A DNA stretch of 64,000 nucleotides from a virus (IMGVR_UViG_3300022848_000777:1-64000), one strand, 5' to 3'. Shown: positions 6,938-55,909, counted from the stretch's first letter. The notes: a model not told the origin generated them from the sequence alone. A program made the numbers and translations.

Positions 6938-7774
6938 ATGAATAAACCTATAAAAAGTATAAATCAATTAATAAAAGATGAGTACACTAAATGTGCAGCT
7001 GATCCAGTATATTTCTTTAAGAAATATTGTTATATCCAACATCCAACACGTGGGAAGATTTTATTCGATACCTTCGATTTCCAAGATGAAACTTTAGAAG
7101 ATTTTAATAATTTCAGATTTAATGTGATATTAAAATCAAGACAGTTGGGTATATCAACACTAACAGCAGGTTACGCATTATGGTTAATGTTATTTAAAGA
7201 AGATCAAAATATATTGGTTATAGCAACAACTCAAGATGTGGCCAAAAACCTTATCACTAAGGTTAAGTATATGCATGATAACTGCCCTAGTTGGTTGAGG
7301 TTAGATACTGAGGAAGCAAACAAACTATCATTAAGATTTGTAAATGGTTCAACAATTAAAGCCGTATCAAGTACAGGAACAGCGGGTCGATCAGAGGCAC
7401 TATCATTATTGATCATTGATGAGGCTGCATTTATTCAAAAAGTAGATGATATTTGGGCTTCTGCACAATCTACACTTTCCACTGGGGGTAGTGCTATCGT
7501 ACTTTCCACACCAAATGGTGTTGATAACTTCTTTCATAGCACATGGTTAAAATCAGAAGAGGGTGCCGCATGGAATGGAATACGATTGCATTGGACTAGG
7601 CATCCAGAAAGAAATCAAAAATGGAGAGATGAGCAATCCGCATTGCTTGGTGATGCAATGGCAGCTCAGGAATGTGATTGTTTGTGGGGGGAATCTATGG
7701 TTACGGTACGTGATACTGAAACGGAAAATATCATAAACGTATCACTTTCAGATTTGTATAATAATTTATATTAA
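6938..7774 (+). CDS. terL: Terminase large subunit, N-terminal ATPase part fused to a 31-aa split-intein N fragment
   Basis: KSRQLGIST (Walker A), LIIDEAAF (Walker B), STPNG. Ends QECD|CLWGESMVTVRD...LYNNLY*, with intein Cys1 at 7679. Confidence 0.95.
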   Translation: MNKPIKSINQLIKDEYTKCAADPVYFFKKYCYIQHPTRGKILFDTFDFQDETLEDFNNFRFNVILKSRQLGISTLTAGYALWLMLFKEDQNILVIATTQDVAKNLITKVKYMHDNCPSWLRLDTEEANKLSLRFVNGSTIKAVSSTGTAGRSEALSLLIIDEAAFIQKVDDIWASAQSTLSTGGSAIVLSTPNGVDNFFHSTWLKSEEGAAWNGIRLHWTRHPERNQKWRDEQSALLGDAMAAQECDCLWGESMVTVRDTETENIINVSLSDLYNNLY

Positions 7775-7777
7775 TTA

Positions 7778-7785
7778 TACTTATA
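7778..7785 (+). promoter_or_regulatory. Late-type promoter motif TACTTATA before the terL endonuclease
   Basis: Member of the TA(T/C)TTATA family (about 18 intergenic copies). Confidence 0.65.
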
Positions 7786-7808
7786 TACAAGAGTGTGAAT
7801 GTAAACGG

Positions 7809-8552
7809 ATGTTATATATGGGGTATGTAAAAGATGGGTGGGATAAAATTAAAGATGAATTATCAAATATTGATGAGTTTTATACCATTAAGCAAACTAT
7901 ACATTTATTAAATACGGATTATTATTATAAAAATTATTTTGGTAGGGCTAGGAATCGCACTATGATAAAACGTAATCCTAAATTATACAAGTCCATATAT
8001 GAACATACTGATATTTTAGAAACGACATTTAAAAAATATAATAAATACAAAGGTTGGTATAATTTCAAATACCGTATGGTATTTTTAGTTGATAATGGTG
8101 GTGATATTAACACTTTAAAGTGTGAGTGTGGTCGTACATATAATTGGACTAAATATTGTAGATTCTGCCCAAATCCTAAAAAAACATGGTTGGGTAAAAC
8201 ACATACAGATGTAACTAAAAAAATACAACGAATAAGTACTTTACAATACTTATCAAAAACCAATGGTCAATTAACACCTAGATATAATATCAATTCAATA
8301 CCAATCATAGAAGCAAAAGCTAAAGAATTAGGAATAACTGATTTACAGCATGCCGAAAATGGTGGAGAATTCCACATCAAAGATCTTGGTTATTGGGTGG
8401 ATGGTTATAGTAAAGAAAAAAACATAGTAATAGAATATGATGAACGTCATCATTTCAGAAATGATAAGATAAAAGTGAAAGATATTCAAAGACAAAACGA
8501 AATCGAAACCCATCTTAATTGTAAATTTATAAGGATACGTTGTAATGGATAA
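7809..8552 (+). mobile_element. Free-standing homing endonuclease (Vsr/EDxHD-like PD-(D/E)xK fold) inside fractured terL
   Basis: QHAENGGE..VDGY..IVIEYDERHH..D..RQ..I...L.C.FIRI. Lies between the intein halves; paralog of 54188..55015. Confidence 0.85.
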
Positions 8553-9732
8553 TCATATATTAAGACATAATCATAAATATGAAATACTAACACCATCGGG
8601 ATATCAATCATTCGCTGGGATTCGTAAGATCTCTAAAGATGTAATATACACCATTATATTATCTAATAATAAAACAATAAAATGTTCAGATAATCACCCA
8701 TTTATTATTAACACTGATATTATCCATTCCAATAAATTAAAAGTTGGTGATATATTAGATGGTGTTGATGATACCATAATTACGATTGTTGATATTAAGA
8801 AAACGATGGGAACTTTGAATTTATTTGATGTCGTTGATGTTAATGGTGGTAATTTATTTAATGTTGATGGTATAATTTCACATAATTGTGATTTCATCAC
8901 ATCGGGTTATGGTGTTGTCGATGGTTCTATATTGGAGTGGTATAAAGAGAATCATGTTGTAGATCCATTAGAAGAACGTGGTTTCGATGGTAATTATTGG
9001 TTGTGGAAATATCCAGATTATGATAAAAATTACATCGTTGTGGCCGATGTCGCGCGAGGTGATGGTAAGGATTTTTCAACATTCCATGTTTTCGATGTAG
9101 AAACTGTAGAGCAGGTTGCTGAATACAAAGGTAAGATAGAAACAAAACCTTTTGGTGAGATGTTAGTGGCCGTCGCTATTGAGTGGAATAATGCAATGTT
9201 GGTAATAGAAAACGCCAATGTTGGTTGGGCTGCGATACAACCCGCAATCGATAGACATTATGAAAACCTATATTATTCATATAAAGATTTTGGATATGTT
9301 GATGATGAAGTTCATCTACAAAGTGCCTATGATATGGCAGATAAATCCAAAATGGTTCCTGGATTCTCAATGACAACTAGGACACGACCTTTGGTTATAT
9401 CAAAACTTGATACATATATGAGAGAAAAAGTGCCGATAATTCACTCAATTAGACTTATAAATGAATTATTTGTATTTGTTTGGATGGGTTCTAAGGCAAT
9501 TGCTCGTAATGGGCATAATGATGATTTAGTAATGGCATTTTCTACAGCTTTATGGGTGAGGGATACCGCACTTAGACTTAGACAAAAGGGTATTGATTTA
9601 AATAGAAGTGCAATACAACATACTACAAAATCAAATACATTCTATAGTAACACCCAACGAGCTCAATCCGACAAGTACTGGAATATGAATATAGGTGGAA
9701 AGCATAGTGAAAATATAAAATGGTTGCTGTAA
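8545..9732 (+). CDS. terL: Split-intein C fragment (114 aa) plus terminase large subunit nuclease part
   Basis: CSDNHPF (block B) and ISHN|CDFITSG (Asn ends 8886, Cys+1 at 8887), then ADVARGDGKDFS and HNDDLVMA nuclease motifs. Confidence 0.95.
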   Translation: MDNHILRHNHKYEILTPSGYQSFAGIRKISKDVIYTIILSNNKTIKCSDNHPFIINTDIIHSNKLKVGDILDGVDDTIITIVDIKKTMGTLNLFDVVDVNGGNLFNVDGIISHNCDFITSGYGVVDGSILEWYKENHVVDPLEERGFDGNYWLWKYPDYDKNYIVVADVARGDGKDFSTFHVFDVETVEQVAEYKGKIETKPFGEMLVAVAIEWNNAMLVIENANVGWAAIQPAIDRHYENLYYSYKDFGYVDDEVHLQSAYDMADKSKMVPGFSMTTRTRPLVISKLDTYMREKVPIIHSIRLINELFVFVWMGSKAIARNGHNDDLVMAFSTALWVRDTALRLRQKGIDLNRSAIQHTTKSNTFYSNTQRAQSDKYWNMNIGGKHSENIKWLL

Positions 9733-31469: not shown

Positions 31470-34241
31470 ATGGGATTGAAAGACCTTAAATCAGATTTAT
31501 CAAAATTTAGAATACCAAAAAAAAGTAATTTGGTTGATAATGCTGTAGGTAATGTAAATAGTGTGTCTGATAAAACACCATTATCAAAGATGAGTGTTCC
31601 TAATATACCAAGATTTAATAATACATCAGATAAACAAGGTAAGGAAATATCTAAACTCAACAATGATGAAGTATTCAAAGGTGAGACATCGCCATCTAAA
31701 TTTGATAACGGCTCTAAATTCTTAGGTGAGACTACCCCTGATGTATTGGATAATAAACCTCAGTTTTTAGGTGAAACTAATACAAATCCATTAGGTAATG
31801 ATTCTAAATTCTTAGGTGAGGTAGATAAATCTCCGATTTCCAAAGATCCCAAATTTTTAGGTGAAACCGAAAAATCACCATTAGAAAACTCATCTCAATT
31901 CTTAGGTGAAACTGATGTCAATGGATTGGAAACTAATTCTCAATTCTTAGGAGAAACTGACACGAAGCAATTAGGTAATGATTCTCAATTCTTAGGTGAA
32001 ACTGAAAAATCACCACTAGAAAACTCATCTCAATTCTTAGGAGAAACTAATGTCAATGGATTAGAAAACTCATCTCAATTCTTAGGAGAAACTAATGTCA
32101 ATGGATTAGAAAATAATTCCCAATTCTTAGGTGAAACTGAAAAATCACCACTAGAAAATAATTCCCAATTCTTAGGTGAAACTGAAAAATCACCACTAGA
32201 AAATAATTCCCAATTCTTAGGTGAAACTGAAAAATCACCACTAGAAAATAATTCCCAATTTTTAGGAGAAACTGAAAAATCACCATTAGAAAACTCATCT
32301 CAATTCTTAGGGGAAACTGACACGAAGCAATTAGGTAATGATTCTCAATTCTTAGGAGAAACTAATGTCAATGGATTAGAAAATAATTCTCAATTCTTAG
32401 GAGAAACTGACACGAAGCAATTAGGTAATGATTCTCAATTCTTAGGTGAAACTGAACCAACTACTGTAAACTTCATAAGTGATATGCATGCAGAGGGGTT
32501 TACCCAAAATATAAAAGGAACTAAATATACAGGAATCAATAAAGTTGGTACAATATTTGACAGTACTAATTCATTATATTCTAATATAGACTCCAATTCT
32601 TTTACAGTAGGTAGTACTTATGAGACTAATTTCCGAAAGCTTGGTGGGCTAAATTCAGGTGAAACTGGTTTTGGATTAGGTAAATCCCATGCAAAGAGAA
32701 ATTCACCATCATACTTAGATGAGTTATATAATAGATATAATTTAAAAGATGATGCATATAATACACAATTTACATTATTTAAACATCCATTAATACTAAG
32801 AGGGATTCAACGTCGAGGTGTTAATAAAAAAGAACCGCAATTTTGGGGTACTAAATTACAAAAGGGTTCTGTTAATTTAATTAGAGGTGGGGCATTAGCA
32901 TCTACTGAAAGAGCGTTAGTTGATGTAGTAAGGATTTCAGGATGGTTGGCATCACCGCAGGGAGTATTATGGTCGACAATGCAGGTTGGATTACAACGAA
33001 CTAACAGATATGGAAAGCAGTGGACACCGTTAGGATTATTAGCAGCAGTTGGTGTTCAACATTTGGGATTAAAACCAGATAGAGCTGGAATATTACCATT
33101 CGCACCTAAACTATACAAATATGGTCAATTTGCTAATAGTGTAAATATATTAGGAACGGCTGGTCTCGGCCCTTTAGGTGTGGTGGTAAAGAAAACTCTT
33201 AGATATGAAGATATTATATCAATGTACCGAAAATTGGAATCTCAACCTGATAATCGTTATATGGCTTGGAAAAATGACAGAAGAGGTGGATTTGATTCTC
33301 TGTATGGTATTGGTCAGACTACAACAAATAGATTCACAAGCACATTTGGGAATGAAAAGAATACTGGAGTTGACAGTAGTATTGGATTAGATCCTCTAAA
33401 ATCCTATGAAACATTACCTCTTGATAAATTAGTAAAAAGTAACTCTAATAGATATAATGATTTCAGATTGAGCTTATCATTGGGGAATCAACACAGACAG
33501 TTGGCGCAGGATGCGGGCTATGATTTTCAGAAGATAAGAATCGGTTACGAGTCGCTACCGATTCTTAATTTAGATATCAATACAAGTAAAGGAATTTTAT
33601 TAGGAAATCCAGGTAAAGTTGATAAGGATTTGGTTAGTATATCTAAAACCACATCTGCAAAGTTATCCATTGATCGGGAACTGCATGATAGTTTAAACGC
33701 ATCAGATGTTTCAGCTAAAGAGCATAATGATTTAGTTAAATTTTGGATAAAAGCTGATGGTGGTGAGAGTGTTCAATTTAGAGGAACTATTAATGGTCTC
33801 AATGACACATTTTCTCCAGGATGGGATTCTTTTAAATATAACGGTCGTGCAGATCAATCATATAAATACAGTACATTCGAACGATCTGTAACTTTCAATT
33901 TTCAAGTATATGCAACATCCAGGGTTGAAATGAAACCGATTTGGAATAAAATAAATTACTTAGCAACGATGACTATGCCTAAATATGGTGGTTCTCCTGG
34001 ATATGAAGGTACGTTAGTTAATTTCACATTAGGTGATTTGTATAAAAAGAAATTAGCATTTGTGGAATCTCTGAATTACACTATGCCTGATGAATTACCT
34101 TGGGATATTAACCATGATGATAATTTAGCAGTAATACCAACGGGAATTGATGTAAACATATCCTTTAGAATATTAGATAATCTAAGACCTGAAATCGGCC
34201 AAAAAGTTTATGATGCTAATTTTATAACAACTTATTTATAA
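31470..34241 (+). CDS. Baseplate/tail-tube-initiator-like protein with an N-terminal 15-aa repeat array
   Basis: C-terminal QFRG.I..L.D.FSP.W....YNGRAD..Y.Y..FERSV.FNF; located between the tape measure and LysM-like genes. Confidence 0.6.
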   Translation: MGLKDLKSDLSKFRIPKKSNLVDNAVGNVNSVSDKTPLSKMSVPNIPRFNNTSDKQGKEISKLNNDEVFKGETSPSKFDNGSKFLGETTPDVLDNKPQFLGETNTNPLGNDSKFLGEVDKSPISKDPKFLGETEKSPLENSSQFLGETDVNGLETNSQFLGETDTKQLGNDSQFLGETEKSPLENSSQFLGETNVNGLENSSQFLGETNVNGLENNSQFLGETEKSPLENNSQFLGETEKSPLENNSQFLGETEKSPLENNSQFLGETEKSPLENSSQFLGETDTKQLGNDSQFLGETNVNGLENNSQFLGETDTKQLGNDSQFLGETEPTTVNFISDMHAEGFTQNIKGTKYTGINKVGTIFDSTNSLYSNIDSNSFTVGSTYETNFRKLGGLNSGETGFGLGKSHAKRNSPSYLDELYNRYNLKDDAYNTQFTLFKHPLILRGIQRRGVNKKEPQFWGTKLQKGSVNLIRGGALASTERALVDVVRISGWLASPQGVLWSTMQVGLQRTNRYGKQWTPLGLLAAVGVQHLGLKPDRAGILPFAPKLYKYGQFANSVNILGTAGLGPLGVVVKKTLRYEDIISMYRKLESQPDNRYMAWKNDRRGGFDSLYGIGQTTTNRFTSTFGNEKNTGVDSSIGLDPLKSYETLPLDKLVKSNSNRYNDFRLSLSLGNQHRQLAQDAGYDFQKIRIGYESLPILNLDINTSKGILLGNPGKVDKDLVSISKTTSAKLSIDRELHDSLNASDVSAKEHNDLVKFWIKADGGESVQFRGTINGLNDTFSPGWDSFKYNGRADQSYKYSTFERSVTFNFQVYATSRVEMKPIWNKINYLATMTMPKYGGSPGYEGTLVNFTLGDLYKKKLAFVESLNYTMPDELPWDINHDDNLAVIPTGIDVNISFRILDNLRPEIGQKVYDANFITTYL
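31666..32457 (+). repeat. Coding tandem array of about 18 x 45 nt (xxQFLGETxxxxLxN)
   Basis: 17 FLGE plus 1 FKGE at exact 15-aa spacing. Confidence 0.95.
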
Positions 34242-37287: not shown

Positions 37288-37542
37288 ATGGATACTCCAA
37301 TTACAGAAAAAGATCAGCAAGAATTATACGAAAAATACGCCCCAGTTCCATTTCAACGTAGTTATTCCCGAAATTCATTACTTTTATTATTATCATTACC
37401 ATTAGTGTGGAATCCATTCCATCACTGCGAATGGCTTTATTGGAAATATGGTAAGGCTGATCGGTTACATAGAATATGTTGGACGTGTCGTAAGAAAGAA
37501 AAAAAACATCAAGGTGAGTGGGTAAAAGATCCAGTACTATGA
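37288..37542 (+). CDS. Small hypothetical protein
   Basis: First ORF behind the promoter; HxC and CxxC motifs. Confidence 0.5.
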   Translation: MDTPITEKDQQELYEKYAPVPFQRSYSRNSLLLLLSLPLVWNPFHHCEWLYWKYGKADRLHRICWTCRKKEKKHQGEWVKDPVL

Positions 37543-38783
37543 TTAACTATATAATGAGTGGTTCAATATCCACTACAAATGCATTTGTGTATCCATTGTG
37601 GATGAGTGATACTATACACTCAGCAGTAGTTGGGTTATCAATTATATACATATATGATTTGGATTCTGAAAAGGAATATATTATAAATATAAATCATATG
37701 GATTCTGATAAAACTACGTTAAATGATGTTCAGTTGGATATCGACACGGCTTTTATATACAATATGAAATCAGCATTAAACTCAGAACTTAGGTTTAATA
37801 ATATGTATGATGCTGATATGTTGAAGTACTTACAGAAAAACGAAAAGTTGATCGATGAATTTACAACAGCTCATACGTTTTTCCATAGGAAATTTAGAAA
37901 CCTACAATTGATAAATAATTATATACCGATTGTAAAGCATTTAGAATCAATACGTGAATCTTTAGATGATTTTTTGAAATTCTACGAAAATCGAGATGGT
38001 GAATTGTTAGAGAAATTTTCAAAGTATTACTGCAAATCACTGTACGGTGTGGAGTCTAATGGTATTATGACAACAACAGGGTTAGAATATACCCACTACA
38101 ACCCATATACTTTGACATCCAGACCATCAAATACATTTAATGGTACAAACTATGCGGCACTTAAAAAAGATGATGATACCCGTAGTAGATTCATTTCCAG
38201 ATTTGTAGATGGTAAACTGATTCAATTCGATTATGATGCATATCACGTTCGTATTATAGCTGAAATGATAGGGTTTGAATTACCAATCGATCAATCGGCT
38301 CATAAGATTTTGAAAGAATACTATGGTGATGTATCATATGGTGATGCAAAGGGTATCACATTTAGACAATTATACGGTGGCGTTGAAGATAAGTACGCAC
38401 ATATTCCATTCTATCAAAGAATTGAGAATTTCAAAGATATTCTTTGGGATGATTTTCAAAAAAATGGTTATATAGAAACTGAATTAGGTAGAAAAATGAA
38501 AAAAGAATACTATACTGATTTCAATAAGAATAAACTATTCAATTACTTATTACAATCGACTGAGACTGAAAAGAACCTACAGAAAGTTTTAGAAATAAAT
38601 AAACAATTAGAGGATTATAAATCTAAGTTAGTTTTATATACCTACGATTCATACTTATTTGATGTATCACCCGATGAAGCTGGTGTATTATCTAAATTGA
38701 AAATACTTATAGATGAGGGTAATTTCCCCAGTAAGATTGAAATAGGTGAAAATTATTCCAAAATGGAAAGTTTTAATAAATGA
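37518..38783 (+). CDS. Compact family-A DNA polymerase-like protein
   Basis: T.TSRPS, DYDAYHVR (motif A), KGITFRQLYG (motif B), NY.LQS and TYDS (motif C). Likely start 37539. Confidence 0.8.
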   Translation: MGKRSSTMINYIMSGSISTTNAFVYPLWMSDTIHSAVVGLSIIYIYDLDSEKEYIININHMDSDKTTLNDVQLDIDTAFIYNMKSALNSELRFNNMYDADMLKYLQKNEKLIDEFTTAHTFFHRKFRNLQLINNYIPIVKHLESIRESLDDFLKFYENRDGELLEKFSKYYCKSLYGVESNGIMTTTGLEYTHYNPYTLTSRPSNTFNGTNYAALKKDDDTRSRFISRFVDGKLIQFDYDAYHVRIIAEMIGFELPIDQSAHKILKEYYGDVSYGDAKGITFRQLYGGVEDKYAHIPFYQRIENFKDILWDDFQKNGYIETELGRKMKKEYYTDFNKNKLFNYLLQSTETEKNLQKVLEINKQLEDYKSKLVLYTYDSYLFDVSPDEAGVLSKLKILIDEGNFPSKIEIGENYSKMESFNK

Positions 38784-45109: not shown

Positions 45110-46420
45110 ATGGATACATTCGGAAAGAGATTTGGTTCAAGTTTCCAAATAAAAATTCTATCAGCATTATTATCAGATAGGATATTTTTACAGACTATTT
45201 ATGATATTATAAAAGATGATTATTTCGATTCTGATGCAAATCAATGGATTTTAAGTAAAATATTAACCCACTTTGATAAATACAAACAAATACCAACCTT
45301 AGATGTATTTAAAACGGAATCAGATGCACTTAGTTCTGATATTCTAAGACAATCTGTATCAGATAACCTTAGAAATGTATGGGGTGGATTAGAATCCACT
45401 GAGTTAGAATACATAAAAGAGCAATCACTAGAGTTTTGTAAGAATCAGGAAGTTAAAAATGCTATCCTTGAATCGGTAGGTTTGCTTGAGAGTGGTAACT
45501 ACGAAGAAATTCAATCTAAAATAACCGCAGCTATGAAGGCTGGGCAGGATACTGATATCGGGCATGAGTATAATATTAGTATTGATGAACGTTATGCCGA
45601 TAGTGTTAGGAATGTAATTACAACAGGATGGCCTGCAATTGATGAATTAGTAGATGGTGGTTTCGGAAAAGGTGAATTAATTATCTTCGCAGCACCGCCA
45701 GGAATTGGTAAATCATGGGCTCTTATTAATGTGGGTATGGCTGCTGTCAGAGCTGGAAAAACGGTGGTACATTATACTTTAGAGTTAAACGAGGGATATG
45801 TTGGTCAGAGATATGATGCTGTGTTAACTAATATGGCAGTTACTAATTTGAAATATAACATAGATGATGTTAAATCTAGTATTAAAGAATTATCAGGTGA
45901 GCTTATAATAAAATATTGGCCCACAAAATCAGCATCCGTTAATTCCGTAAGGGCATCGGTTGATAAGCTCATATTACAAGGAAAGAAGCCTGATATCATT
46001 ATAGTTGATTATGCAGATTTACTTAAAGGCAATTCGAAGCGAGAGAAGCATGAAGAAATTGAAGAAGTAGTTGAGGAACTTAGAGGTTTGGCAGGGGAGT
46101 ATGAAGTACCATTATATACAGCATCTCAAATAAATCGTTGTCATAATGTAAATGATAACGTGGAAACTCCAACTGGTGATAAAAGGATTGGTGATGTGGA
46201 GATTGGAGACCAAATATTAACACATAAGGGATTTAAGAAAATAACAAATGTATTCCCAATTGAACGACAACCAACCTATCGTATTAAGCTTAAAGATGGT
46301 AGAGAGATAAATGTTTCAGCAGAACATATGATACCAACCCAATACAACAAAATAAAATCCATAGCAGATGGACTTTCAGTAGGTGAGAAATTATTTGTAA
46401 AAAAGAGTGGAAAAAAGTAA
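45110..46420 (+). CDS. gp41: Replicative helicase (gp41/DnaB), N part plus 93-aa split-intein N fragment
   Basis: APPGIGKS, TLEL, VDYADLL, ASQINR|CHNVND. Intein Cys1 at 46139; VSAEH is block B. Confidence 0.95.
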   Translation: MDTFGKRFGSSFQIKILSALLSDRIFLQTIYDIIKDDYFDSDANQWILSKILTHFDKYKQIPTLDVFKTESDALSSDILRQSVSDNLRNVWGGLESTELEYIKEQSLEFCKNQEVKNAILESVGLLESGNYEEIQSKITAAMKAGQDTDIGHEYNISIDERYADSVRNVITTGWPAIDELVDGGFGKGELIIFAAPPGIGKSWALINVGMAAVRAGKTVVHYTLELNEGYVGQRYDAVLTNMAVTNLKYNIDDVKSSIKELSGELIIKYWPTKSASVNSVRASVDKLILQGKKPDIIIVDYADLLKGNSKREKHEEIEEVVEELRGLAGEYEVPLYTASQINRCHNVNDNVETPTGDKRIGDVEIGDQILTHKGFKKITNVFPIERQPTYRIKLKDGREINVSAEHMIPTQYNKIKSIADGLSVGEKLFVKKSGKK

Positions 46421-46440
46421 GGTTTTGCCATGCAGTTATA

Positions 46441-46448
46441 TACTTATA
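46441..46448 (+). promoter_or_regulatory. Late-type promoter motif TACTTATA before the helicase endonuclease
   Basis: Followed by AAAAGGA and ATG 46464. Confidence 0.65.
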
Positions 46449-46463
46449 TAAAAAGGATATAAT

Positions 46464-47555
46464 ATGGCATCAGTAAAGCAAGCTTGGATAACTAGATACG
46501 GAGAAGGGGAAGGTCTTCGTATGTGGGAAATACAAAAAAAGAAATATGGTAAAACACATGATGAATTGAGAACGAAACACGGTAATGATTACGTTGAATC
46601 GTTAGCAAAGAAGAAAAATACATTTTCATTAAAAGGGTGTATTGCCAAATATGGAAAAGTTGATGGTGCTGTTAAGTGGAATGATAGATTAAAAACCAAG
46701 TTAAAAACACAATCTGTTAATTTTAAAAACAAAAAATGGAATAATGGTAGAACCTTAGAATCATATCAACTTAGATACGGGGTAGCGGATGGTTACAGTA
46801 GGTGGGATAAACGGAATAAGCATCAATCCTATATGGCATCAACTCAACGTTATTTGGATGAATTTGGTGAAGATGGGTATGATATAATAAGAAAGATAAA
46901 AGATAACACATCTTTAGAGGCGTATCAAATTCAATACGGTGATGTAGATGGTTTAGTTCATTATAATAAGCACGTTGAACTGATGAAGAACGCATCAAAG
47001 AGGTGTATTGATTATTGGTTAACGTACCATAATGGTGATATTGAGTTAGCAACGCAATCGTTATCAGAGTATCAGAATAATACATCGTTATCATCATTTA
47101 CAAAACGATATGGTAAAGAAGTTGGGTTAGTTAAATATTTAAAATGGGTTGAGGCGGTAACAAAGTATGGATATAAAAGTTATAGTAAGATATCACAGAC
47201 ATTCTGTTGGAATTTGTATGATTCGCTAAATTTATCAATAAATGATACACAATTTTATGAATTAAATAATGAACAATCATTCTACTTTGGTAATAAGTTG
47301 ATTAAGGTTGATTTTAAGTATAAACAAAAGATTATAGAATTCAATGGTGATTATTGGCATGCAAATCCTAATCTGTATAGTGAATCTGATATGATAAAGG
47401 AATATACCGCTAGTGAAATATGGCATCGTGATTCCAATAGAATTGATTTATTAGAAAAAGCTGGTTATGATGTCTTAGTTGTATGGGAATCGGAGTATAA
47501 TGCGAATGGGAGTGATATCATAAACAAATGTAAAAAGTTTTTAGAAAATGAATAA
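46464..47555 (+). mobile_element. Free-standing homing endonuclease (Vsr/EDxHD-like) inside the fractured helicase
   Basis: N-terminal (R/K)YG...G...W repeats. C-terminal VDF...IIEFNGDYWH...D..R......GY.VLVVWESE. Confidence 0.85.
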
Positions 47556-48018
47556 ACATAATTTAAATCCAGATGATTTTGATTTGGTCGAAATTGAGAG
47601 TATTGAGCTAATCGGCGATTCAGATACTATTGATATTACCGTAGAGGATACACATATGTTCTTCGCTAATGGGGTATATAGTCATAATTCAGGCGCAGAT
47701 GATGATATTATTACAGGTACCAAAATAGCAGGTTCATTCTCAAAACTTATGACTGCTGATTTTGTAGTTTCACTGAGTAGAAAAATTGAAGATAAGTTAG
47801 CAGGTACGGGTCGATGGCATGTTATAAAGAACCGTTTCGGGCCCGATGGTACTACATTACCATCCAAAGCTAATATGTCCAGCGGTAAAATAGAGATATT
47901 TTCAGATAATTCAGTTGATGGTCAAAATACAAAAAAAGATATGAAAGAGGGGGAGACTTTTGTTAGACAGAATTTATTTCAAAAGTATAAAGAAATTAAC
48001 AACAAAGTTAACTTTTAA
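47548..48018 (+). CDS. gp41: Split-intein C fragment (47 aa) plus helicase C part
   Basis: IESIE..G..DTIDITV...HMFFANGVYSHN|SGADDD (Asn ends 47688), then TADF and KNRFG motifs. Confidence 0.95.
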   Translation: MNKHNLNPDDFDLVEIESIELIGDSDTIDITVEDTHMFFANGVYSHNSGADDDIITGTKIAGSFSKLMTADFVVSLSRKIEDKLAGTGRWHVIKNRFGPDGTTLPSKANMSSGKIEIFSDNSVDGQNTKKDMKEGETFVRQNLFQKYKEINNKVNF

Positions 48019-52196: not shown

Positions 52197-54149
52197 ATGG
52201 CATATCAGAACGTATTTTATGATAGTGATACTAGAATAATTCATTCATGGGATGATGTTCTTGGTTACGAAACGAGTAAGTATTCACCATATGCATACGT
52301 AAGAGATGGTAATGGTGCGCATACTTCAATATATGGTGATAGGGTTAAGAAAGTAACCTATTGGAAAGATTACAATCCTAATGATCTATTTGAATCTGAT
52401 GTAAATGAAATTACTAGATTTCTAATAGATAAGTATGGGGAATCTGATGAAGTATCTAAAAATCATTGTACACTTACATTTGATATTGAGGTAGAAATGA
52501 ATTCAGGTTTACCCGATACCACTAAAGCTGAAAATGAAGTAACTGCAATAGCATTTCACGATTCTATAACAAATGACAAAGGTGTTTATGTAGTTCATAC
52601 GGGTAAAGAAATTGATAGGAAAATAAAAGGTGCTAATGTAAAATCCTTTAACACTGAGGCTGATATGCTATCTGCATTTTTAAATAAATGGGTAGATATA
52701 TCGCCAACAATAGTGACGGGTTGGAATATTGATTACTTTGATGTTACATATCTTTACAACCGATTGTGTAATGTATTCTCAACGACTGAGGCTAACAGAT
52801 TGTCACCAATTGGTAAAATAAAGTATAATAAATATAGAAAACGTTACCTTATAGCAGGTGTATCTTGTTTAGATTATATGGCATTGTTTAAAAACTTCAC
52901 ATACACAGAACACCCGAATTATAGACTTGATACTATAGCAACTTTAGAGTTAGGTCGTGGTAAGATTGAATATGATGGTAACTTAGATCAATTATTCAGA
53001 GATGATATTGAAAAGTTTATTGAATATAACCTAGTCGATGTTGAGTTGGTTGTTGATTTAGATAAGAAGTTACAGTTTATTGATTTGGCAAGGGCAATAT
53101 GCCACACAGGCCATGTTGCTTATGAGGATTTTCTTTTCTCTTCAAAGTGGTTAGAGGGGGCTATGCTCACATTTCTACGTAGAAGTGGTAGGGTTGCACC
53201 GAATAAACCCAATAGAGTTTCACTAAAGATAAACTCAGGTAAAAAAGGTGAAAATCGAATCTATTTAGAGAATTTACCGAATCTAACACCCCGATCAGGG
53301 AAACTAAAGATTTGGAAATCGAAATCATCTAAGATATCAGTAGAGTATGATGATATTGATTTCTCTACCAATTCATTTATATTGAAGCACCCATTAAAGG
53401 AAACCTTAAAAAAAGAATGGATACTTAAACTTGATTTTGAGGGGGCTTATGTAAAAGAACCAAAACCAGGACTATATAAATGGGTATATGATTTAGATTT
53501 AACATCAATATATCCCTGTATCATTATGACTATTAACATATCACCCGAAACTCAAGTGGGTAATATAACAAATTATTCCACAGAGGCTTATATGCGGCAT
53601 GATATTTCTAAGTTTGAAATAACAGATATTCATGGTAATATATCAGATCCGATGGATAGGGTTGAGTATGATGCATTCATTACAAAGATGAATCTAAGTG
53701 TAGCTGCTAATGGTACATTATACGACCAAAGTAAAGTTGGTATAATTCCTGAAATTTTGAATGTTTGGTTCGACAAGAGAGTTGAATATAAAGATTTGAT
53801 GAAGAAGTTCGGAAAAGCAGGTGATGATGATAAGTATAAATTTTACAATCAACGGCAATCCGTGCAGAAGATTATGCTCAATTCCCTTTATGGTGTACTT
53901 GGTTTGGAGTCATTTAGATTCTATAATGTGAAAAACGCGGAAGCGGTAACACTTACAGGGCAGACTGTAATTAAAACCACTGAGTTAATAGCTAATAATT
54001 ATTATAATAGTGTAACGGGCGATGCTTATGTAATTCAATTAGAAAATGGTGAAACTGTTAGTATGGGTGGTAATCTACCTGTTACGTTAACTAATGGAAT
54101 GATAAAGAAAGTTTCAGAATTAACAGAAGAAGATGATGTTTTATTATAA
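52197..54149 (+). CDS. polB: Family-B DNA polymerase, N part (exonuclease, motifs A and B), ending in a degenerate intein-like segment
   Basis: FDIEV, GWN...FD, YNLVDV, DLTSIYP and KIMLNSLYG motifs. Lacks YxDTDS. Tail 54024-54146 is Hint-like. Confidence 0.95.
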   Translation: MAYQNVFYDSDTRIIHSWDDVLGYETSKYSPYAYVRDGNGAHTSIYGDRVKKVTYWKDYNPNDLFESDVNEITRFLIDKYGESDEVSKNHCTLTFDIEVEMNSGLPDTTKAENEVTAIAFHDSITNDKGVYVVHTGKEIDRKIKGANVKSFNTEADMLSAFLNKWVDISPTIVTGWNIDYFDVTYLYNRLCNVFSTTEANRLSPIGKIKYNKYRKRYLIAGVSCLDYMALFKNFTYTEHPNYRLDTIATLELGRGKIEYDGNLDQLFRDDIEKFIEYNLVDVELVVDLDKKLQFIDLARAICHTGHVAYEDFLFSSKWLEGAMLTFLRRSGRVAPNKPNRVSLKINSGKKGENRIYLENLPNLTPRSGKLKIWKSKSSKISVEYDDIDFSTNSFILKHPLKETLKKEWILKLDFEGAYVKEPKPGLYKWVYDLDLTSIYPCIIMTINISPETQVGNITNYSTEAYMRHDISKFEITDIHGNISDPMDRVEYDAFITKMNLSVAANGTLYDQSKVGIIPEILNVWFDKRVEYKDLMKKFGKAGDDDKYKFYNQRQSVQKIMLNSLYGVLGLESFRFYNVKNAEAVTLTGQTVIKTTELIANNYYNSVTGDAYVIQLENGETVSMGGNLPVTLTNGMIKKVSELTEEDDVLL

Positions 54150-54156
54150 TTAATAC

Positions 54157-54164
54157 TACTTATA
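54157..54164 (+). promoter_or_regulatory. Late-type promoter motif TACTTATA before the polB endonuclease
   Basis: Followed by CGGGGG and ATG 54188. Confidence 0.65.
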
Positions 54165-54187
54165 TATAGAAACGGGGGTATCAACGT

Positions 54188-55015
54188 ATGATTGAATGTA
54201 AAATATGTAATAAGAAGTATAACACCATCACAGCAACTCATTTAAAGACACATGGTATTAGTATGGCAGATTATCGAACTAAATTTCCCAATGTACCAAT
54301 CCAATCAGATGGGATGATTCAGAGGGGAGTTCACTCATTAGAAAATATGATACGAAGGCATGGTGATGTTCAAGGTAATATTAGATGGGAAGATTATAAA
54401 CAAAAACAGGCGTATACGAATACATTTGAATACAAACGTGATATTTGTGGTTGGGATGAGGATCAGTTCAATGCGTATAATAAAAAGAGAGGTAGTTTTG
54501 GTGAGTTGAATGGTAATCATGGGTCATCGTATTATCAGATTTGGATTGAAAAGTATGGTAGAGATGTGGCAGATGATATGAATTTTCAGTTATCTAAACG
54601 TAAAGCTAGACATGGTGAAGATAATGGTAACTATAAGAGATCAAAAAGACCTGATGAACTGAAACGAATGAGTGTATCTGCAATAGAGCGTGTAAAACGT
54701 AATGGGATGCCACATTCATATAATCCAAATTCAATTCCAATTATAGAACGGTATGGGTTGGATAATGGATATACATTTCAGCATGCTGAAAATGGTGGTG
54801 AGTATCAAATACCAGATAATACGTTTTTTGTAGATGGGTATGATAGATCAAATAATGTAGTGATTGAATATGATGAACAACGACATTTTAGAAACGGAGA
54901 ATTGCATCCAAAAGATATATGGAGAATGAACTTGATTATATCGAAATTAAAGTGTGTGTTTGTAAGAATCGATTATAAGGGCAATATAACAAAATATGAA
55001 AATAAAAACAATTAA
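54188..55015 (+). mobile_element. Free-standing homing endonuclease (Vsr/EDxHD-like) inside fractured polB
   Basis: N-terminal CxxC...HL..H zinc finger. C-terminal QHAENGGE..VDGYD..VVIEYDE..H; paralog of 7809..8552. Confidence 0.85.
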
Positions 55016-55909
55016 AAAAACAAACGTCGGCGTAGATTACAACATCTACGTCGACACGTAACTGATTCAGTATTTTATGAAGCAGCTCCATTGGTTAAGG
55101 CTAGAAATCCTAAAATCGATGTTAATTCTGATGAAGAAATGATACCTGCCATTCTTAGTGTTGCAAAAGAAGTGCAAGATCACATCAATAAAACATATGA
55201 TGTGATGGCTAAATCCATGTTTAATACCAGTAACCATAGATTTGACATAAAGCAAGAAACAATCGCAAAGGGTGGATTTTGGGTATCTAAAAAACGATAC
55301 GCTCAGTGGATTATAAATGATAACTCTGTTAATTGTGATAAGTTGGATGTAAAGGGGTTAGATGTAAAACGAAGTTCATTTCCTGTATACTTTAAGGAAG
55401 TGATGTCTGAAATATTATGGTCTATTCTAAAAGATGATGCGAAATTGAACATCGATAAAAAGATATTAGATTATAAAGATGGTATGGAAAATTACTACTA
55501 TGTTGATATTGCAAAGAATTCAGCAATTACGGATATGAGTAAGCATTTATTTAAAAACCAAGCTCTTGGTGAGTTTCAAAAGGGAACACCCGCTCACGTT
55601 AAAGCAGCAATAACTTATAATCAATTATTAAAAAAGTTCAATACTGCTTTTAAATACGAACCAATTAAAGATGGTGATAAGGTTAAATGGGTGTATTTAA
55701 AGAATAATCCATTGGGATTGAATGGGGTTGCATTGAATGGGTATAATGATCCTGATGAAATAATTGAGTTCATTAAAACCTACATAGATTTCGAATTAAT
55801 TTGGGAAAAAGAACTTCAAAATAAATTAGATGATTTCTATGATGCAATGAAATGGGATTTACCAAACCCAAACTTAGATAAAGCAGCAGAGTTTTTCGAC
55901 TTTAATTAG
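54996..55909 (+). CDS. polB: Family-B DNA polymerase, C part (motif C, thumb), with a 5-nt frame break inside YVDTDS
   Basis: ATG 54996 gives MKIKTIKKTNVGVDYNIYVDT* (TAA 55059-61). The other frame from 55061 gives TDSVFYEAAPL...KKRYA...KGLD..RSS. The ORF-track start at 55091 omits the catalytic motif. Confidence 0.85.

Follow-up and report, generated by a model that had tools for sequence, protein, structure and literature searches.

A phage PolB gene apparently split by a mobile cassette, with Hint-derived ends on its two halves and a candidate ribosomal bypass site in catalytic motif C

The PolB gene described here lies in a window of 64,000 nucleotides at the start of a virus record from salt-lake metagenomes (174,750 bases, about 90% complete) and is split into two genes, the second of which carries a 5-nt, stop-containing gap that interrupts the YxDT|DS codons of catalytic motif C. 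We favor an account in which a mobile cassette split PolB, left a half-Hint joint on the two halves and made the second half dependent on a hairpin-driven ribosomal hop, and we put the probability of this account as a whole at about two in three. A homing-endonuclease cassette would have split PolB in the loop before motif C, bringing a 41-aa tail to PolB-N and a short basic leader to PolB-C; these two segments would together fold into the central half of a Hint domain and, being unable to splice, would act as a non-covalent assembly joint. The cassette would also have brought a strong hairpin and the 5-nt gap within the YxDTDS codons. The idea of a clasp is not categorically new, and homology and a structural model now appear to support it; more surprising is the gap, to which a hairpin is strictly linked. 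A preliminary description of this locus had proposed the Hint origin of the joint and the loss of its splicing residues, both of which stood, and had missed the coding gap in motif C.

The window contains T4-like structural and replication genes, and the split PolB was the sole PolB found in the 174,750-base record, in which a search for DnaE found none. A 421-aa PolA-like ORF was seen at positions 37518–38783 (PHROG 17, E 8e-10, under the Pfam cut-off) in this genome, which has PolB too, and the ORFs at 31470–34241 and 11–1315 carry long internal tandem peptide repeats with units of about 14 aa and about 34 aa, respectively. Scans for promoters and terminators returned chance-level matches only. 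The nearest cultured PolB, that of Microcystis phage Mel-JY01 (48%), is annotated as a single unbroken gene.

All parts of the split gene lie on the plus strand. PolB-N (52197–54149, 650 aa) comprises the exonuclease, motifs A and B and the palm helix, and ends, as had been described, in the 41-aa acidic tail (54024–54146, net charge −5). PolB-C does begin with MKIKTIKKT, at an ATG at 54996, which opens the basic leader strand (54996–55025, net charge +4); it had also been thought to run straight into polymerase sequence, which it does not, the ATG frame stopping after 21 codons (YVDT, then TAA at 55059–55061). The remainder of PolB-C (55064–55909), from the catalytic Asp of motif C through the thumb, begins DS-VFY in a different frame from that ATG. 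On RB69 gp43, the break falls in the loop at residues 610–614 that connects the palm helix to the motif C strand. Nearly all of the genes at 160 related loci were unsplit and had neither tail nor leader. The unsplit relatives read uninterruptedly through ...YY-x(9-10)-DYNIYVDTDS, and because tail and leader were missing from every one of them, the possibility that these segments are a normal loop of unsplit homologs did not hold. Split alleles keep both segments with or without an endonuclease gene and with or without the gap; no natural in-frame fusion of tail to leader was seen among the relatives. Two further features were noted in PolB-N: an extra ~60 aa before motif A (window positions about 53190–53420), present also in the unsplit relatives L024 and L117, lacking in most others and without a PHROG hit; and, in relative L199 (positions 1–2402), a LAGLIDADG-type intein besides the tail, endonuclease gene and gap.

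The tail had been aligned to the window's own inteins, an alignment that was weak by itself (hhalign E 0.019 against the gp41 IntN; 6.5 and 4.5 bits), and it was family-level profile and fold tests that backed the proposed Hint origin of tail and leader. The Pfam Intein_splicing model matched four of 11 tails, with a best E of 0.0057, and Pfam gave no match to the window tail by itself. A word-based homolog search with the tail as query recovered only itself, tblastn of one tail against cultured phages gave nothing significant, and a PDB sequence search with the tail profile returned non-significant matches only, some of them inteins. Among 1.84 billion proteins searched, 117 matched the tail profile, of which 68 were intein segments with the block-B His (by motif count) and the rest were about 14 PolB tails, 7 repeats and about two dozen His-less C-terminal tails. 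Some of the His-less tails end PolA, DnaE, NrdD and radical SAM proteins (P0206, P0177, P0152, P0164, P0187, P0175, P0132), and these tails on other hosts suggest that the module may have been reused at many split sites.

In relative L147, tail and leader share a reading frame, two TAA codons being all that separates them. Our structure model is of this relative, with the two TAA codons read through as an artificial linker, and does not represent the two separate chains of the window. Its folding used an alignment limited to PolB tails, and it reached a pLDDT of 81, with the leader forming a long strand. A fold comparison of this tail-plus-leader model with 48,161 solved chains, of the kind that the preliminary description had suggested against Hint domains, placed Hint or intein domains at all of ranks 1–29, the best match being the PolII mini-intein (Z 9.1) and the first other fold scoring Z 3.3. 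The gp41-1 intein matched with Z 8.0 and 1.6 Å over 58 residues, and this Hint-fold homology covers only about residues 44–102 of the gp41-1 chain. Foldseek with the same model gave weak agreement with Hint.

The loss of splicing residues was likewise confirmed. There is no Cys in the window tail, TxxH was found in 0 of 21 tails (L147 retains a His without the Thr), and block A is absent together with the Cys/Ser1 that would mark the N-extein junction, the tail, which is homologous to the block-B half of inteins, beginning directly at the block-B region. On the other side, blocks F and G, the terminal His-Asn and the +1 nucleophile are missing, and the leader passes from its position as the first IntC strand into the polymerase D-x-x-I-Y-x-D-T. 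Since blocks A, F and G and the block-B His are missing, trans-splicing is impossible. Differences among the tails by codon position were 160/105/233, the third positions varying most, and the tail is thus under protein-level constraint. From this variation and the absence of TxxH and of blocks A, F and G, we conclude that the tail is a protein-level, Hint-derived, non-splicing module.

Taken with the model, tail and leader are likely to form a non-splicing, non-covalent clasp of the two PolB halves, and we have good confidence that the tail binds the oppositely charged leader. A predicted complex of the tail with the leader of the gap-free relative L194 scored 0.30 (mark 0.32) and carries no weight for or against binding. 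The preliminary description had presented such an intermediate as not, to its knowledge, a described system, which makes it newer than it is, tails on split phage genes being known from Aeh1 nrdA and T4 gp39/gp60. One of these cases also bears on function. Both assembly and activity were reported to depend on the tails in Aeh1 (PMC3045599). The halves of Aeh1 NrdA still bound each other after tail deletion, and the PolB tail may therefore stabilize or cap rather than clasp. The corresponding alternative, that the halves are held by their own palm interface and that tail and leader are Hint remnants retained for another purpose (capping the broken loop, stability, or, for the leader, acting as a nascent-peptide signal for the hop), draws further on the T4 NTE, which takes part in bypass, and on the T4 insertion, a pendant with little influence on activity. 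We nevertheless regard it as unlikely, as many gap-free split alleles, for which a hop is unnecessary, conserve the leader, and as tail and leader always co-occur and model as one Hint half.

Between the two halves lies a 275-aa ORF (54188–55015), a putative free-standing homing endonuclease that appears Vsr-like by motif and had no match above the cut-off in Pfam. Its end overlaps the PolB-C start by 20 nt, and it and the ORF within the window's split terL intein are 47% identical over a C-terminal 118 aa. Both terL and the gp41 helicase gene of this window are split by apparently intact split inteins, and in each case a free-standing ORF separates the two halves. In terL (6938–9732), the split-intein N-part is very short (about 30 aa), the C-part is long and ends HN-C, and a 247-aa Vsr-like ORF sits between the two; a conventional split intein fractures the gp41 helicase gene (45110–48018), whose halves flank a 363-aa DUF559/Vsr-like ORF. 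The middle gene of the PolB relatives was Vsr-like, GIY-YIG or absent.

One pair of relatives suggested how the PolB cassette may move. The split allele L053, which has a GIY-YIG gene and the gap, and the unsplit L141 showed 0/1519 differences upstream, 20/85 in a recoded stretch before the break, then the insert, and then 0/140 differences from DS on. From this pattern, the exchanged block spans the recoded stretch through the landing codon, and tail, endonuclease, leader, gap and recoded host stretch would move as one block, as judged from this single pair and whichever the direction of transfer. A quick PolB-C tree did not group the alleles by state: unsplit, split and gap forms were interleaved.

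The gap in the window reads GAC ACG TAA CT GAT TCA, with YxDT before the stop and DS 5 nt on. Contigs from two sequencing runs, both of which may be of the source sample, matched the whole stretch without differences, and a 2019 run, from another year, covered 55041–55236, also without differences. Using DNA pattern scans and protein searches, we gathered 20 distinct gap alleles, 14 with a gap of 5 nt, two of 6 nt, three of 7 nt and one of 43 nt; no gaps were seen in unsplit genes. Gaps of 5, 6 and 7 nt span all three frames, and deleting the gap always restored YxDTDS. The many gap-free split relatives read leader-YxDTDS in a single frame and thereby define the intended product. A stop came directly after a Thr codon in 19 of the 20 gap alleles. 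The triplet before GAY was ACN in 13 of 19, a count biased by the search pattern, and a near match in the other six (ATG three times, ATA, TCA and GCT). Four candidates (L181–L184) were rejected as chance pattern matches. At L188 (242–251), the gene caller had taken the TAG of the gap as Gln (P0114), so that the gap was hidden behind what seemed to be an alternative genetic code. The 43-nt gap of L189 (250–296), on a single 2-kb contig, has no immediate stop, contains a second hairpin and has GAT repeated on both sides; judged by its sequence, it seems to be a longer bypass of the T4 or byp kind that takes off from Asp.

We considered whether the gap might be removed from the RNA (by splicing, editing or polymerase slippage) or the gene be a dead pseudogene or an assembly error, and we give these options together the faintest chance of any. 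An Rfam search found no intron match, and several alleles have only about 25–60 nt between the halves. A pseudogene is at odds with the excess of tail variation at third codon positions and with this being the only PolB of the genome, and recurrence of the break in 19 relatives, as well as in several runs, rules out assembly error.

Every gap allele (20/20) and none of the 74 gap-free alleles had a hairpin adjoining the Thr codon. In the window, this 12-bp RNA hairpin (55026–55055; z = −4.4) ends at the Asp codon preceding the take-off codon. Folding energies for the 47 nt ending at the take-off codon were −11.6 to −23.5 kcal/mol in the 20 gap alleles, compared with −7.6 kcal/mol or weaker in the 74 gap-free ones. 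All 12 bases of the stem were paired in 14 of the 20, and two-sided changes occurred at positions 1, 4, 5, 6 and 12. It is probable, judging from the gap and its linked hairpin, that programmed ribosomal bypass is the recoding route, and the second PolB protein would be made only if ribosomes skip five bases. The proposed site (55056–55063) consists of the take-off codon ACG (55056–55058), the stop TAA (55059–55061) and the landing codon ACT (55061–55063). Ribosomes starting at 54996 would stall at the stop with peptidyl-tRNA-Thr on ACG, the hairpin would refold behind the ribosome and push it forward, and the peptidyl-tRNA would re-pair at ACT, decoding restarting at GAT to give an intact YVDTDS. 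Because the hairpin ends one codon before take-off, it would be unwound once the ribosome is at the stop, and its refolding could supply the push. The gap would probably also shield the site from the endonuclease, as in T4; for this immunity and the pushing role of the hairpin together, the odds seem to us about even. The sites show what bypass calls for: take-off and landing codons that are matched or wobble-compatible, a stop in the A site in 19 of 20, and a conserved RNA structure that is predicted to be stimulatory. tRNA-Thr(UGU) is able to read both ACG and ACU, and P-site re-pairing is tolerant; the six of 19 landing codons other than ACN would require wobble or mismatch.

A single mechanism, a hop of peptidyl-tRNA-Thr to the triplet before GAY, would explain all three frames. 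Ordinary frameshifting or readthrough could also reframe each gap class in one step (a −1 shift in the 5-nt class, readthrough in the 6-nt class and a +1 shift in the 7-nt class), inserting two residues in motif C, but it would need three separate mechanisms under one hairpin, no slippery run is present at the site, and an insertion in YxDTDS was seen in 0 of 74 gap-free DNA alleles; its chances appear very slim. Hardly better are those of termination and re-initiation, by which a separate 21-aa peptide and a third chain starting at or near the landing codon would give a three-piece polymerase cut at the motif C turn. Seven of the 20 gap alleles do have an ATG, GTG or TTG in the resume frame no more than three codons from DS; in three of these the landing codon itself is ATG, twice in a TRATG overlap of stop and start. 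A canonical start is absent from the other 13, including the window (GTA ACT GAT), an NTG results automatically from N-TGA, all three ATG alleles take off from ACG, consistent with G·U wobble re-pairing, and the catalytic hairpin would be cut at DT|DS.

If bypass and the clasp are as we propose, the implications extend beyond this gene. To our knowledge, programmed bypass is known in few systems only, namely T4 gene 60 and its relatives, the yeast mitochondrial byps and a Streptomyces phage terminase. We see it as a toss-up whether the half-Hint joint, derived from inteins, serves generally as a module with which endonuclease cassettes can interrupt essential phage genes (PolB, PolA, DnaE, NrdD, radical SAM and probably T4 gp39/gp60) and whether PolB has a minimal bypass signal (one 12-bp hairpin, a Thr codon and a stop) efficient enough for the active site of a replicative polymerase. 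What drives take-off and landing could be studied simply on a signal of 70 nt and three parts that comes with natural variants of 5, 6 and 7 nt and with gap-free sister alleles. Half-Hint tails would supply a step so far missing on the way from split inteins to split genes that lack an intein and would answer the question of origin left open for the T4 and Aeh1 tails, and tail and leader suggest a small natural heterodimer tag. The gap would also account for gene callers truncating these polymerases and losing the catalytic Asp. A literature search, partial in its coverage, found no report of a demonstrated Hint-derived clasp or of bypass in PolB.

Among known systems, Aeh1 nrdA/mobE likewise has non-splicing, oppositely charged tails on two halves, which are required for activity, and differs in its host and endonuclease, in its reversed charge polarity (the N-half tail being basic) and in having no coding gap (PMC3045599). 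A degenerate intein was proposed there as one option for the origin of the tail, though not shown (Crona 2011; PMC3045599). Genes fractured by split inteins (gp41-1, and gp41 and terL of this window) share with PolB a free-standing Vsr-like or GIY-YIG gene between the halves, an endonuclease end overlapping the downstream start and Hint-derived ends, whereas PolB lacks blocks A, F and G and the block-B His and has the added coding gap (PMC2677866). An intein-less, SbcD-like fractured gene with extras of 25 and 9 residues has been described (Dassa et al.; PMC2677866). The terminase of Streptomyces phage Hau3 resembles PolB in its short gaps (7–10 nt) and 5′ stem-loop signal, but its trigger is a rare UUA codon rather than a stop, and its gene is unsplit and has no endonuclease cassette (Antonov et al.; PMC10732093). 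Bypass in Hau3 was confirmed by mass spectrometry in E. coli, with a stop replacing UUA (PMC10732093).

Gene 39/mobA/gene 60 of T4 has the layout seen here (Manning and Atkins; 10.1101/2022.08.31.505936). There too, an essential gene is split by an endonuclease cassette with C-terminal (~44-aa) and N-terminal extensions, a host stretch is recoded, a gap that holds a stop interrupts an invariant acidic motif of the active site, the endonuclease may be swapped (GIY-YIG, Vsr-like) or lost, and the gap may be lost with the tails kept. The T4 gap prevents re-cleavage, and in the parts consulted the extension sequence is termed unique with no intein link noted (10.1101/2022.08.31.505936). A second study describes the extension as folding into a pendant and proposes that it aids assembly, with no mention of Hint or intein (PMC11461880). 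In our searches, the T4 gp39 tail scored 17.6 bits against the PolB tail profile, higher than any of 1000 shuffles (hhalign probability 64, E 6.5e-5), which we take as a moderate hint that the two tails share an origin; in the fold search with the L147 model, the T4 topoisomerase 8yo3 reached only Z 2.5, so the link to T4 rests on sequence. The two elements also differ: the host here is PolB, whereas MobA elements were described in that material as exclusive to topoisomerase; the PolB gap of 5–7 nt is about tenfold shorter than the T4 gap of about 50 nt and has no room for a take-off stem-loop or mini-SD; PolB has a conserved hairpin 5′ of its take-off codon, which is Thr; and its leader measures 19–30 aa compared with 44–45 (10.1101/2022.08.31.505936). 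The 5′ stem-loop of T4 is reported there as not conserved among T4 relatives, and the role of the PolB hairpin therefore cannot be copied from T4. The PolB element has the split ORF with conserved extensions around an endonuclease gene, and the one-block difference between L053 and L141, that mark MobA-type elements, and it lacks the topoisomerase host and the gap of about 50 nt with take-off stem-loop and mini-SD. As read from its sequence, it is neither a split intein, having no catalytic residues, nor a strict MobA element, its host and gap being different, and yet it appears to work like MobA.
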